Shown: positions 51,922 to 56,560 of the stretch, one piece after another
Layout of the letters: every line of letters begins with the position of its first letter
Position numbering within the stretch: the stretch's first letter is position 1
Source: a virus
Lineage: Duplodnaviria; Caudoviricetes
Length of the DNA: 64,000 nucleotides
IMG/VR virus record: IMGVR_UViG_2894625894_000003
Span: 64,001 to 128,000 of that record
Direction: 5' to 3' (one strand)
Translations under genes and position numbers: made by a program
The notes under the pieces: model-generated
The model's input: only the letters and a program-made list of their open reading frames with translations
Told to the model about the DNA's origin: nothing
Databases searched by the model: none

Positions 51922-52233
51922 TTATTCCAGAATTTGCCAGTCCTCAGCCAGCATGTCGGTTTGAGAAGCCAGCCAACCGATGACGGTGGCACCCGTGGCC
52001 GAGTACATATTTAGGTGAGGTAAGCGCGTGGCACTGCCGTCGGCCCCTCGGTTGTAGAGGCTTGTAGATACCCCTTCAATTTTGTCTTCGAGTTGGTGGA
52101 GGAATTCGCCATTCTGGGCATCCCAGACGGAGGATCCTTTTTCCAGGAAAACAAACATACGTTTCCCATTCCAACCCGCCCGGGCAATGCGGGCACCTTG
52201 TTTTGCGGCCTCCAGGGCCTTTCCAAAATTCAT
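51922..52233 (-). CDS. tad2: DUF2829 / Thoeris anti-defence Tad2-family sponge protein
   Basis: MNFGKALEA.K.G..IAR.GWNGK.MFVFL...GWLASQTDMLAEDW. Confidence 0.85.
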   Translation of the reverse strand: MNFGKALEAAKQGARIARAGWNGKRMFVFLEKGSSVWDAQNGEFLHQLEDKIEGVSTSLYNRGADGSATRLPHLNMYSATGATVIGWLASQTDMLAEDWQILE

Positions 52234-52373
52234 AGGATCTCCTCTAGGATTGAATCGATTTGAGCGTCGAGTTTATAGGCGACGGTCGTGCCGGGCGTAA
52301 TGGCCCGTTTGGCCAGGATTAATAAACGGAGCTTGAGATAAGCCTTGTACTTTTTCAGAAAAGTAGTAACCAT
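52230..52373 (-). CDS. 47-aa microprotein
   Basis: MVTTFLKKYKAYLKLRLL...ILEEIL*; ATGA-coupled to tad2. Confidence 0.5.
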   Translation of the reverse strand: MVTTFLKKYKAYLKLRLLILAKRAITPGTTVAYKLDAQIDSILEEIL

Positions 52374-52465
52374 GACAGGGTTTCGATGTAAAAGGTCAAC
52401 AAGTGGATGTAGGCTTGGAGCGCCACCGGGTGGCGGTATATCCAGCTACGAAGCCGGCTGATCAT
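52355..52465 (-). CDS. 36-aa hydrophobic microprotein
   Basis: MISRLRSWIYRHPVALQAYIHLLTFYIETLSWLLLF*; ATGA-coupled to the upstream ORF. Confidence 0.4.
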   Translation of the reverse strand: MISRLRSWIYRHPVALQAYIHLLTFYIETLSWLLLF

Positions 52466-52563
52466 ACGATAGGGGCTGGAATGAGTTTCTTCAACTGGCC
52501 CCACCCCCATTTACAGAACCTGTAGAGTAAGGGGGAAAGCCGTTGGCGGTGACACATGGGCAT
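52462..52563 (-). CDS. 33-aa microprotein
   Basis: ATG 1 nt after the previous stop; MPMCHRQRLSPLLYRFCKWGWGQLKKLIPAPIV*. Confidence 0.35.
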   Translation of the reverse strand: MPMCHRQRLSPLLYRFCKWGWGQLKKLIPAPIV

Positions 52564-52564
52564 G

Positions 52565-53299
52565 TTATCCGAAGAGATCGTCGTCCCCTACTGCTGACTG
52601 GACAGTGGGATCGACTGGTGGACCGGCTTGTGGACTCAGTTGCTGGCCCTCAGCTGCGGTAGTCTGGCTATCGGCTGGGGTAGCTGGAGCTGCCGAAGCG
52701 TTTGTCTTTTTAGCCGACTTACTGGCTGATTTAGTAGAAGGCTTGGGGGCAACTGTGACGGGTACCAAAAAATCATCCGGTTTGGTATCGGCTGGTAATT
52801 CCGTCTGGGGTTGACTGTCGGGCAAAGACACTGCAGCCGGGTCAGCTGGAGGGACCAGTGTACTAACAGGCTCCGGGGCTGGGGTCCCCTGTTTGAATAG
52901 ATCCAACACAGTATCAATGGCGGGGCGCTCCGTCTCTACCGGTATGGGTATATACGTCGATGCTGTATGGCCTGTTTCCTGTATACCTGCCTCGGGTAAA
53001 GTGCCGGTTGGGGCGGGCACGTACTGATCGTGAAATTCATCGGCCGTCTTAACCAGGTAGAATCCATCGGGATCCAGGATGACAAAGTCACCCAGCCGTA
53101 AAGCCGTTAACCCGGCTGGTGTTTTAACGACGGGTCCCAGTTCGGCATAAAACGGTACGTATTCATGACGGTAGGCAATCCGAAATACATTGCCGGTTTT
53201 GCGGTCGATGTGACCCCATTGAAGAAATTCAGGTAAGGTGTCCTCTCCCTGGTACTGGTAGGCATCTACGTACCGGGGTTTTTGAAGATAACTGAGCAT
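52565..53299 (-). CDS. Conserved phage protein (KP..V.A.Q...GD(F/Y)(V/I) family) with a low-complexity tail
   Basis: KPRYVDAYQY...KTPAG...GDFVI...F...Y. Confidence 0.6.
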   Translation of the reverse strand: MLSYLQKPRYVDAYQYQGEDTLPEFLQWGHIDRKTGNVFRIAYRHEYVPFYAELGPVVKTPAGLTALRLGDFVILDPDGFYLVKTADEFHDQYVPAPTGTLPEAGIQETGHTASTYIPIPVETERPAIDTVLDLFKQGTPAPEPVSTLVPPADPAAVSLPDSQPQTELPADTKPDDFLVPVTVAPKPSTKSASKSAKKTNASAAPATPADSQTTAAEGQQLSPQAGPPVDPTVQSAVGDDDLFG

Positions 53300-53307
53300 A
53301 AGGGTTA

Positions 53308-53640
53308 CTACATTACAGAATGATCAATCGGAAACACACCGGCCGATGACAGGTATGAATAATCAAATAGGGAATCGAAGCGGCCTGAATCCTTTCTGCC
53401 TGCGTAAAGCATACTCATGTAACTGTGTTTAGGCTTTTCAAGTAACAGGGTTCGGGTAGGATCTCTTAAACCAGGGTGGGTCCAGGCATTACATTGCTGT
53501 TTTAAAAACCAGTCACAAAATGATTCCGGTGGTTGTTTCTGGTAGTCCCTGGATTTTTCCAGTTTTTGGAGTAATCCTCTGGCTACTGCTGTTTCGTCCG
53601 GTTTAGTAGGAGCCGGACTGGGGGTCCAACCCCCGTCTAA
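53308..53640 (-). CDS. Start-less 110-codon -1 frame (frameshift extension of the 69-aa gene)
   Basis: Verified stop-free; no ATG/GTG/TTG for the first 74 codons; begins at the slippery heptamer. Confidence 0.65.
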   Translation of the reverse strand, partial: LDGGWTPSPAPTKPDETAVARGLLQKLEKSRDYQKQPPESFCDWFLKQQCNAWTHPGLRDPTRTLLLEKPKHSYMSMLYAGRKDSGRFDSLFDYSYLSSAGVFPIDHSVM

Positions 53641-53646
53641 AAAGGG
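53620..53646 (-). promoter_or_regulatory. Programmed -1 ribosomal frameshift signal
   Basis: C CCT TTT, then a 5-nt spacer (TAGAC), then the GGGGGT-TGG-ACCCCC hairpin. Confidence 0.7.
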
Positions 53647-53846
53647 CGTATTTTAATCGTTATCTGACTGAGTCGATCTTCAAACACCTCCGGGATGGCA
53701 CGGGCTATTTTAGTTTTGGCTCCATCTTCACTAATCGACAGGATTTCTGTGATGGGTACAACCACTTCTGGTTTAACGCCGGCTTTGCGTTCATCGGCAG
53801 TTGGGTAAAAGATGGCTACACCCTGGAATAATTGTTCGTTGTTCAC
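53637..53846 (-). CDS. Small phage protein ending ...IRPF
   Basis: 69 aa, GTG start. Confidence 0.75.
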   Translation of the reverse strand: MNNEQLFQGVAIFYPTADERKAGVKPEVVVPITEILSISEDGAKTKIARAIPEVFEDRLSQITIKIRPF

Positions 53847-53881
53847 GGTAAAAAATTGGTTTTAAGGTTACTACAACGTGT

Positions 53882-54370
53882 TTATTTAGATAGGATAGAG
53901 AAGTCGAACAGCTCATCGAACGCCTTCGAATACTGATTCCAGTCCTCGGGGCTCATTTTCATACCCAGGGGTTTGACCTCATTAGGCAGGGCATCCCGCT
54001 CGGGGTTAAAGTTTTCGGTTAGTTTTCGACGGAACCAGTTGATGGTCAGCGTGTCGGAATAAGACTTCCACTTTTGAAGAGTGGTTAATCGGTTGACAAC
54101 AAACAGTTCCTGGTTAAATCGGAGGATACCTTTATTGTGGTTTTCCGGTGAAATCTGGTTGATCCGGGCTGGAATGGCCTGTAGCTCGGAATCAAAGTAC
54201 TCCATCTGGTTGACGTAGTTGATTAACTCTTCAACCGAGCTGAAGTAAACCGGAATGTGACTCTCGTCGATGAGGGCTTCATTCAGGCTCTCTTCCGTAA
54301 TCTGGTCAACCAGAGCATTGAGTTCGGGGGTGTCTAAATCGGCTTGTGAAAAATTGGTACGGGCATCCAT
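53882..54370 (-). CDS. Hypothetical protein
   Basis: 162-aa acidic ORF after TerL. Confidence 0.65.
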   Translation of the reverse strand: MDARTNFSQADLDTPELNALVDQITEESLNEALIDESHIPVYFSSVEELINYVNQMEYFDSELQAIPARINQISPENHNKGILRFNQELFVVNRLTTLQKWKSYSDTLTINWFRRKLTENFNPERDALPNEVKPLGMKMSPEDWNQYSKAFDELFDFSILSK

Positions 54371-54412
54371 GCTATAGGTGGGATGAAAAAGAGTAAGAAG
54401 TATGTAAGGATC

Positions 54413-56560
54413 CTACCGGCGTCTGAAGCCGAAGGGAGACTTCCGAGAGGAGCTGGTTTTCCCGGATCCTGCTTGTCCGAGGCTCTTCTGGGGATCGAGG
54501 CCCATCCAGGCATTGGAAGGCGTTCGCTTTTGTTCCGTCACCGGTTTAGGTTCCGGTTTGAGGATGGCCATCGGGAAATACTTGTTGAGGTATTTCATGT
54601 AAGCCAGGGCGTGACCGTTACCAACGGCCCGGTCGTAGTTGCCCTTAATATTGGAGGGGTCGATGGCCAGGTACTCATCGATCAGTACCGGGTCCAGCCA
54701 GCGGGTATAACCGTAAATGATATTCTCACTGGTAACGTTACCCGAGGCATCCGTGATCTTATCGACCCGGAGTACCTCCCCGGCATATTCCACTGAAGCC
54801 CCCAGCCAGTAGGCAATGTTTCTTTCCGTAGGGGCTAATCCGTACGAAGAAGCCGCTTTCGATTTGGGATTAATAGTTTGCTGGAGGCTCCAGGTTTCCA
54901 CCAGGAATTTCTCAGCTTCCTGCCGCTCGTCGAAAAAGTTGAGGACCATGTCATTACTGACCTCGTGGAGCATCTTCCCTCCATACAGAATTAGAATCTT
55001 CCGGATGGTGTGGAAAAAAATATTAGTGGACCCTCCCGGACGAGCAACGTAACTAAGTACCATCGTATCCTGGAAGGGATCACTAATATCCTCATACCGA
55101 CGGCGGTAGAGATAAAAGGCACCTAGTGAGGGAGACGTACTGGTCGAAGCGGTGTTGTACGGGTCAAGCCCTCCCGCATGCAGATAATAGGCATCCTTAT
55201 GGCGAGGCTCCTCATACATGATGATTGCCGCATCCAGTTTATCCGATTTCTGGGTAGGATAGTTAGCAATAGGTACCTTGTTGGATAACTTCCATCCCAC
55301 ATCACCTGCCTTTTCGTCTCCAATGTAAAACAGATCGACGGCCCGTCCCTGGGGGTTTTCACGTAGCCAGTCCCGGTGTTTAGTCATTCCTTCTTTATAC
55401 TCTTCGAAGGGATTGGCCGAACTGGTGAGAAACATCTGGTCGATGGTCCGGGGTGCAAACATCTGGGCATTGTTACTGGATTTTTTGTCATCCGATTTCT
55501 CAGCTTTGGCAAACTCTTCATCCAGTACCCGGTTTGCTTTTTCAAAATCGGTTTCCTCCATGGGGAAGTTGCCCAGCTCACCCCCCGGGTTATAATCCAG
55601 TAACCCCTTTTTGACCAGGTATTCCCCTAGTGTGGTAATTTGTTTAAGATCCTGTCGATACCAGCCCCCCACAAAAAGCCCAGTCTTCTTACCATCATTG
55701 GTATACGTCCGTATATTGTTGGCTTCGGGATTAAGGTAAAAGGATTTTGCATCCTGAGACTTTTCAACGTTACCACCGGTGAAGGCCATAAACGGAGCAC
55801 TACGTAACCCATACTTTCCTTTCAGAGCCGGTATGATGGCATCGTGTGCCGAAATAAAAGGGGCCTTGGCAATTTCATCAAAAAAATACCAGGTCGTTGA
55901 TTTACCTGCCCCAACTTGGTCATTATTTCCCTCTTCGGTCAGGTAGAGGAATATACGACTCCAGATCTGTTCGGTATTGTCCTTTTGCTTGAGGCCGAAT
56001 TTCACTTCGGTCTTTGCCCAGGTCTTATCAATGGAGGGCATGTAAAAGATGTCCTCGAATACCCGACCATCTGAATCCGGGGTCAGGCTGTAATTCATGC
56101 CTACGTTGAGCTTTTTGGTAAAAGTCTCTTTGTCGGCTTTGATCGAAAACAGTCCTACTATCTCCGAGTTCCGAATCAGCTTGAGCTGCCGGCAGCACAT
56201 GGATACCATGTTGTCTGTTTTGCCGATTTGCCGGGCACCTCCAACACAAAATATCTCTTTGGCTAATCGGGCCAGGTCATATTCAGTGTGTATGATCCAG
56301 TCGTTGTCCCGCAAATTGGGACGCATAGCTAGTCGGGGTCGTCGCTCGTCATCGGTATCGACCATGAGCAAGTGGTGACACAAATGGTAATAGAGGGAAC
56401 CAACCAGTGGCACCCCATTAATATTTACCCCAATGAGGCATTTTTCGGTTTCAGCCTCTTCGAAAGCCTGCCGGTCAGGATGCCCATCCGGAGGAATATC
56501 CCCCGGTTTCATGTTTATATAAAGCTCGGGGGAATGAATATTAAATATGTCACTTTCCAT
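54413..56560 (-). CDS. terL: Terminase large subunit
   Basis: Walker A GARQIGKT, Walker B FFDEIAK, FTGG, nuclease GLDPY, NYDR; no intein or intron apparent. Confidence 0.92.
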   Translation of the reverse strand: MESDIFNIHSPELYINMKPGDIPPDGHPDRQAFEEAETEKCLIGVNINGVPLVGSLYYHLCHHLLMVDTDDERRPRLAMRPNLRDNDWIIHTEYDLARLAKEIFCVGGARQIGKTDNMVSMCCRQLKLIRNSEIVGLFSIKADKETFTKKLNVGMNYSLTPDSDGRVFEDIFYMPSIDKTWAKTEVKFGLKQKDNTEQIWSRIFLYLTEEGNNDQVGAGKSTTWYFFDEIAKAPFISAHDAIIPALKGKYGLRSAPFMAFTGGNVEKSQDAKSFYLNPEANNIRTYTNDGKKTGLFVGGWYRQDLKQITTLGEYLVKKGLLDYNPGGELGNFPMEETDFEKANRVLDEEFAKAEKSDDKKSSNNAQMFAPRTIDQMFLTSSANPFEEYKEGMTKHRDWLRENPQGRAVDLFYIGDEKAGDVGWKLSNKVPIANYPTQKSDKLDAAIIMYEEPRHKDAYYLHAGGLDPYNTASTSTSPSLGAFYLYRRRYEDISDPFQDTMVLSYVARPGGSTNIFFHTIRKILILYGGKMLHEVSNDMVLNFFDERQEAEKFLVETWSLQQTINPKSKAASSYGLAPTERNIAYWLGASVEYAGEVLRVDKITDASGNVTSENIIYGYTRWLDPVLIDEYLAIDPSNIKGNYDRAVGNGHALAYMKYLNKYFPMAILKPEPKPVTEQKRTPSNAWMGLDPQKSLGQAGSGKTSSSRKSPFGFRRR

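Follow-up and report, generated by a model that had tools for sequence, protein, structure and literature searches.

Most of the conserved frameshifts known in tailed phages concern tail chaperones, and a few concern capsid or tail extensions. In E. coli dnaX the tau and gamma products arise through a -1 shift at the heptamer A AAA AAG, with an SD-like element upstream, and the shift gives the shorter product. Shifts in the +1 direction occur at CUU UGA in prfB, which encodes RF2, and at CCC followed by a stop codon in structural genes of the Listeria phage PSA. For the lambda-like tail assembly chaperones the G/GT frameshift was described by Xu, Hendrix and Duda 2004 (cited in PMC4276943).

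Here we characterize a small gene in the window, i.e. the whole stretch of 64,000 nucleotides that was analysed, which is a prophage in a 7.5-Mb genome. A preliminary description of this DNA had proposed that the gene undergoes a programmed -1 ribosomal frameshift that opens a hidden extension. We re-read the locus, compared it with homologous loci and weighed frameshifting against other explanations. As a -1 frameshift cassette we considered a combination of four features: an X XXY YYZ heptamer in the 0 frame, an open startless -1 frame that overlaps the end of the 0-frame ORF, a stimulatory element 5–9 nt downstream, and a signal and shifted frame that are conserved beyond the needs of the protein sequence. 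The family was defined by an N-domain of about 68 aa and by a tail motif close to TYxSASS[IL] at the end of the extension.

The window gene, its slip site and the -1 frame

The gene is a 69-aa ORF on the minus strand with a GTG start (53637-53846), which encodes a conserved globular N-domain and ends Arg-Pro-Phe-stop. Its last codons read CGC CCT TTT TAG, such that a slippery heptamer C CCU UUU of the type X XXY YYZ lies in the 0 frame (53640-53646, minus strand). Directly 3' of it follows the 0-frame stop codon UAG (53637-53639, minus strand), which terminates the short isoform and, abutting the heptamer, probably acts as a pause element. Re-reading of the sequence confirmed the perfect heptamer before the stop that had been claimed for this site.

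In the -1 frame a TAA at 53655-53653 is followed by a stretch that is open from the TTA at 53640 onwards and comprises 110 sense codons and a TAG at 53310-53308 (53308-53640, minus strand). This frame overlaps the end of the 0-frame ORF and is startless for 74 codons, the first ATG, GTG or TTG being codon 74. It stops 8 nt short of the next gene, whose start is at 53299, and thereby fills the gap between the two genes. All coordinates of the open frame, of its upstream stop and of the gap given in the preliminary description hold, and the product sizes of 69 aa and 179 aa derived from the ORF and the 110-codon frame are correct as predictions. The predicted transframe junction peptide is IRPFLDGGWTPSPAPTKPDETAVAR. 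When the stretch was resampled with a Markov model, a frame of 110 codons stayed open in 0.26 % of the cases (chance 0.0026). The codon score of the -1 frame was -0.004, i.e. neutral, and the highest among the three frames, compared to 0.22-0.37 for the neighbouring genes of the window.

Downstream of the heptamer the minus strand can form stem-loops, either two hairpins or an alternative 11-bp stem (53596-53634), as a putative frameshift stimulator. After a spacer of 5 nt (TAGAC) the stems GGGGGT/ACCCCC (53634-53620) and GTCCGG/CCGGAC (53618-53596) are present where they had been described. The alternative stem, obtained with ViennaRNA, pairs 53634-53624 with 53618-53608. With the same program a fold energy of -27.9 kcal/mol and a z value of -1.93 were obtained over 91 nt, and a z value of -1.67 over 60 nt. 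The window thus carries a candidate stimulatory element within 5–9 nt of the heptamer, with a hairpin z value that is modest (-1.7 to -1.9). A search against Rfam over 52400-54500 gave no match.

A family of small phage proteins ending in RPF and its neighbourhood

An exhaustive phmmer search with the window ORF retrieved relatives in 76 representative clusters of phage proteins of about 68 aa, with E-values down to 1.7e-11 and identities of 30-48 %, which places the window N-domain within the family. The small phage proteins ending in RPF that the preliminary description had mentioned therefore correspond to a real family. Nearly all members are 64-72 aa long. Their alignment (A1) reaches the final residue, with R67 and F69 conserved in at least 90 % of the members and RPF as the usual ending. 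No family member had a match in Pfam or PHROGs, and Atlas clusters with the N-domain fold are viral hypothetical proteins. For the N-domain AF2 gave a pLDDT of 95.9 and the order strand-helix-strand-helix-helix-strand. Fold searches returned middling matches to PurS and eL20-like proteins (Z up to 7.2) and no Foldseek hit with E <0.001. Such matches are too middling to indicate a function.

The family was found in only 2 of the 401 genomes of the host's family. A scan of viral contigs with single proteins gave no match. Among 50,697 GenBank phage records, searched by blastn with the region and by tblastn with five members, only one unannotated uncultured 735-kb phage was found, in two records. 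The literature searched, on the heptamer with either stop context and on surveys of phage frameshifts, contained no description of the family; the occurrences of the heptamer found there were in flaviviruses, other RNA viruses and one tail chaperone only.

On the minus strand of the window an exonuclease gene, small ORFs, terL (56560-54413) and a 162-aa ORF precede the family gene, which is followed by a 244-aa ORF (52565-53299, minus strand), a Tad2-like gene, the portal gene (51834-49069) and the major head protein gene. By this order the family gene belongs to an accessory insert that separates terL from portal. A tail assembly chaperone of the G/GT type was considered and rejected given this position and the lack of a Pfam or PHROG match. 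Position and family searches agree with the earlier impression that the gene does not look like a tail chaperone. A search with TerL gave no close prophage relatives. The 244-aa protein has weak N-terminal matches to phrog_419 and phrog_1810 (E ~4e-4), and its C-terminal half is long, of low complexity and rich in Pro, Ala, Ser and Thr. The same two PHROGs match the downstream neighbour of a family member at another locus, for which tblastn gave no direct similarity to the 244-aa protein. The 330 bp between the 244-aa and Tad2-like genes (52234-52564) hold short ORFs only (33-51 aa).

The genes next to the relatives encode mostly proteins of DNA metabolism, i.e. clamp loader, DNA polymerase, helicase, primase, RecT and RecE-like proteins, and further UvsX and RecA-like proteins, SbcCD, topoisomerase and HNH nucleases; structural genes were absent near the relatives among the matches listed. 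Downstream genes of about 300 aa had been considered as capsid proteins, which was rejected after they turned out to be clamp loaders, recombinases and nucleases. No match was obtained by tblastn of the neighbouring proteins of the window against all fetched loci. The preliminary description had placed the window gene in an anti-defence cluster. Such an assignment rests only on the Tad2-like gene (103 aa, 51922-52233, minus strand; PF11195 with E 2.6e-23, phrog_1048 and phrog_872), which lies 1.4 kb from the family gene, while the relatives lie mostly among replication and recombination genes. In a metagenomic relative (L084 1202-1516) an Acb2/Tad1-hairpin gene (PF24729) follows as the second gene downstream of the family gene. 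The Tad2-like and Acb2/Tad1-like neighbours are a weak hint of a link between the family and counter-defence islands.

Slip-site conservation and shift direction among homologous loci

Homologous loci were collected from IMG/VR (24), from metagenomes (46) and by exact look-up (two), which together with the only relative in the genus (G016) and the window gave 62 non-redundant loci; related loci in this set are not independent of one another, and part of it was fetched with a peptide pattern ending in RPF, which biases the set toward that ending. A stop codon follows immediately after the Phe codon in all 62. In 49 of the loci the end of the ORF reads CGN CCT TTY plus stop, to which we refer as the -1 type. 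Here the Arg codon is CGC in 46, CGT in 2 and CGA in 1 of the loci, and the Phe codon TTT in 31 and TTC in 18, while elsewhere in these loci CGC accounts for 28 % of the Arg codons and CCT for 19 % of the Pro codons. The homologues, from phages of 29-67 % GC, keep CGC CCT TTY plus stop in spite of their own codon preferences: where GC is 29-37 %, the codons before the site have A or T in the third position, and CGC CCT TTT is nonetheless retained. The commonest stop codon of the -1 type is UAG (25/49).

All 49 loci of the -1 type possess a long open frame in -1, while their +1 frame usually closes within a few codons. The -1 extensions were 33-176 aa long, the extension of the window being the second longest seen; where the flank sufficed, the -1 frame was open for 47-176 codons. 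In most loci the shifted-frame peptide ends in a motif of approximately [PA][AS]TYxSA[SA]x[ILV], preceded by a linker that is variable and rich in Ser, Thr, Asn and Gly. A strict regular expression applied to the -1-type loci located this motif in the -1 frame in 38 loci, in both frames in 1 and in the +1 frame alone in none, with 6 loci in which it was undetected. No ATG, GTG or TTG occurs before codon 10 in 33 of the 45 complete -1 extensions, and 14 are without any ATG. Indels among related extensions are multiples of three, and the last ~25 residues are conserved. Signal and shifted frame are thus conserved beyond what the protein sequence needs. The comparison of homologues for an intact CCCTTTT and an open -1 frame, which the preliminary description had suggested as a check, therefore favours frameshifting.

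A smaller group of 12 loci reads CGN CCC (or CCG) TTT plus stop and carries its extension in the +1 frame, with the -1 frame closing quickly in several of them. The Ser-rich linker and the motif are found in the +1 frame in most of these loci; of the 11 whose flank was long enough, only 6 matched the strict expression. All 12 have TTT for Phe, without which +1 re-pairing on UUU U could not occur. A -1 shift would depend, as far as re-pairing is concerned, on the U of CCU alone, and the -1 group has a mixture of TTT and TTC. With the strict expression the motif was never found solely in the frame opposite to that predicted from the Pro codon. From the association of CCT with -1 and of CCC with +1 we conclude that the same heptanucleotide CCCUUUU serves two registers. 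A tree of the N-domain shows at least 3 changes between -1 and +1 on supported branches, and one -1 locus (L018) and one +1 locus (L037) are sisters. The proposed -1 two-isoform system with a variable extension hence describes most of the family, while a part of it uses +1.

Enrichment of downstream RNA structure is confined to the -1 group, with a mean z value of -1.17 (n=47) versus -0.20 in the +1-type loci (n=12). The stop codon of the +1 type is TGA in 11 of the 12 loci; the choice of the stop may tune the termination pause. As a further observation, 11 of these 12 loci contain the string GAGGT(G/A)GCGGT about 13 nt upstream of the Phe codon, where it encodes Glu-Val-Ala-Val; the spacing of this SD-like GAGGT string is unlike that in prfB, and it may reflect shared ancestry.

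In an attempt at refutation we looked up three homologues with an ending other than RPF-stop. Those ending SAF (GCT TTC TGA) and KSF (TCT TTT TAA) both keep U UUY plus stop and have the motif in their -1 extension, and a locus ending RVF (L049; GTT TTT TGA) behaves in the same way. In the third homologue, ending VPFHQG, C CCT TTT lies three codons before the stop and the motif is found in the -1 frame. These four cases point to two routes, a tandem slip on the heptamer and a slip of tRNA-Phe in the P site with a stop codon in the A site, and both seem usable in the family. Two members are continuous ORFs in which N-domain, linker and a tail-like motif are fused in frame, i.e. P0006 (149 aa, with RCF in place of RPF) and P0047 (121 aa). 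From these natural fusions it follows that the long form exists as a real protein.

Two relatives stand out by their extensions. In the 735-kb uncultured phage (L082; LR756501.1 259365-262568, match 1501-1704) the ORF ends CGC CCT TTT TAA, and the -1 extension comprises 190 codons with ~24 collagen-like Gly-X-Y repeats; the record is without annotation. In G016 (L003, G016:C1:138826-142023) the ORF ends CGA CCT TTT TAA, such that the heptamer A CCU UUU is imperfect. A perfect 13-bp hairpin with a z value of -5.6 begins 4 nt after CGA CCT TTT (L003 1430-1500, minus strand). The -1 frame of G016 is 176 codons long and runs into a 152-aa gene with its own ATG, such that a shift would fuse the family protein with this neighbour.

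The extension of the window itself was compared with the family tail in several ways. HMM and PWM scores for the tail were no better than for shuffles, hhalign gave a probability of 0.1 %, and the tail motif thus had no significant match in the window extension. At its best PWM site the extension has five consecutive residues in common with the motif of one homologous locus (L017), a loose resemblance that is not significant. BLAST against the G016 extension gave no similarity, and an Atlas search no usable match, with a low recognition score. A word-index search of predicted proteins with the window extension gave no match either. We attribute this lack of homologues among predicted proteins to the fact that startless ORFs are not called as genes. 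The 179-aa product of the window is thus a predicted one, whose extension bears no detectable similarity to the family tail.

Proposed mechanism, alternatives and relation to known systems

What the sequences show directly is the set of signals, how well these are conserved and, in the relatives, that the shifted frame is coding. That the window copy shifts, how efficiently it would do so and any function are inferred from them. For the family as a whole we regard programmed frameshifting as highly probable. That the 69-aa gene of the window makes two isoforms by a programmed -1 frameshift at its last codons we consider likely, with a lower confidence than for the family because the window extension is unlike the family tail and the heptamer of G016 is imperfect.

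According to this mechanism most ribosomes would terminate at the UAG and yield the 69-aa globular protein. A fraction would slip by -1 on C CCU UUU, where tRNA-Pro would exchange CCU for CCC and tRNA-Phe would meet UUU again; alternatively, with the stop codon standing in the A site, the P-site tRNA-Phe may slip on its own. The slip is probably helped by the adjacent stop and by the hairpin 5 nt downstream, and translation of UUA (Leu) and 109 further codons would then give the 179-aa protein. What is added would, for most family members, be a variable disordered linker followed by the conserved short motif, an architecture that suggests a tether with a docking peptide. AF2 applied to the extension alignment gave a pLDDT of 63 and almost no secondary structure. 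In this model the family extension appears disordered, which fits a tether carrying a short docking motif. The efficiency of frameshifting would decide how much of the protein carries a tail and how much does not, as we suggest by analogy with dnaX and with SSB tails.

The main alternative for the window is that the slip site was inherited and retained while the extension has degenerated, such that in this prophage it is no longer functional and the 330-bp stretch is decaying or non-coding. The absence of the family motif by HMM, PWM and hhalign, the neutral codon score, the lack of homologues and the low Atlas recognition score all fit such a decay. Yet 110 open codons would have had to persist at a chance of 0.0026, in the frame that scores best of the three and that ends 8 nt before the next gene, and the heptamer, still perfect, is retained together with stop and hairpin. 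We therefore hold this alternative to be unlikely, though deserving of consideration. A programmed frameshift in the window remains the preferred reading.

Two explanations dispense with ribosomal slippage altogether. The downstream frame could be a separate gene, translated from a non-canonical start or by termination-reinitiation, next to which the heptamer would be a coincidence. Some relatives do have TTG or GTG near the junction, including one (L008) with GGAGG followed by GTG, and in 6 of 11 +1-type loci a start codon lies upstream in the +1 frame. The window, in contrast, has no ATG, GTG or TTG for 74 codons, and 33 of 45 -1-type loci have none before codon 10. Two genes would moreover leave unexplained the conservation of CGC CCT, the link of CCT to -1 and of CCC to +1, the TTT-only rule of the +1 loci and the natural fusions, which makes this explanation very improbable. 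Hardly any weight can be given to the idea that the assembly is in error, that a once continuous 179-aa gene recently suffered a frameshift mutation, or that RNA polymerase slips on the T run. The shift does occur at a run of five T (53640-53644), and continuous versions exist naturally in P0006 and P0047, but the same arrangement is found in >60 independent assemblies, always with the stop directly after the Phe codon. Polymerase slippage is further opposed by the 18 -1-type loci that read CCT TTC, whose three T are too few.

Taking programmed frameshifting as the preferred reading, we lean somewhat toward a broader picture: an undescribed recoding family, widespread in uncultured phages with the 735-kb one among them, in which CCCUUUU acts as a -1 or a +1 site depending on which of two registers it occupies relative to the stop. 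Either shift would equip a small globular protein from the replication/recombination module with a disordered tether that bears a conserved docking motif. The RPF ending would then be largely an imprint of the RNA signal, and the window and G016 would have swapped in different, longer extensions. Such a second broad frameshift family would let slippage by -1 and by +1 be compared in nature on identical nucleotides, the direction having been exchanged repeatedly, and would provide a case of a conserved C-terminal tripeptide dictated by an RNA signal. It would point to a two-isoform factor in phage DNA metabolism. Its long products would be missed by gene callers, as the startless extensions are absent from protein databases.

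Each of the known systems shares part of this arrangement. In dnaX, too, a -1 heptamer and a downstream hairpin set the ratio of isoforms that differ by a C-terminal interaction region, and the setting is DNA replication; unlike in dnaX, the shift would lengthen the family product, and there is no homology. As in prfB and PSA, the P-site codon of the +1-type sequence CCC UUU UGA can re-pair, and the A site holds a UGA that is decoded slowly. Unlike in prfB, an SD-like element at the RF2 spacing is lacking (GAGGT lies ~13 nt upstream), the family is unrelated, and the window copy is of the -1 type.

With G/GT the family shares a single start from which a short and a C-terminally extended isoform arise, through a conserved frameshift close to where the short ORF ends. 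In both, relatives differ in the direction of the shift but retain the principle of two products. Unlike in G/GT, the family gene does not lie between tail tube and tape measure genes, its short product has only ~68 aa, and its slip site abuts the stop. The flavivirus NS1' site has the identical heptamer C CCU UUU and a downstream structure, but it belongs to a eukaryotic RNA virus, is stimulated by a pseudoknot, has no adjacent stop and concerns an unrelated protein (PMC11797035).

Programmed frameshifting as a mechanism is thus known, while, judging from the literature searched, the gene family and the placement of its slip site at the very end of the ORF against the stop codon are new, as is the interchangeable use of one heptanucleotide for -1 and +1 shifts.
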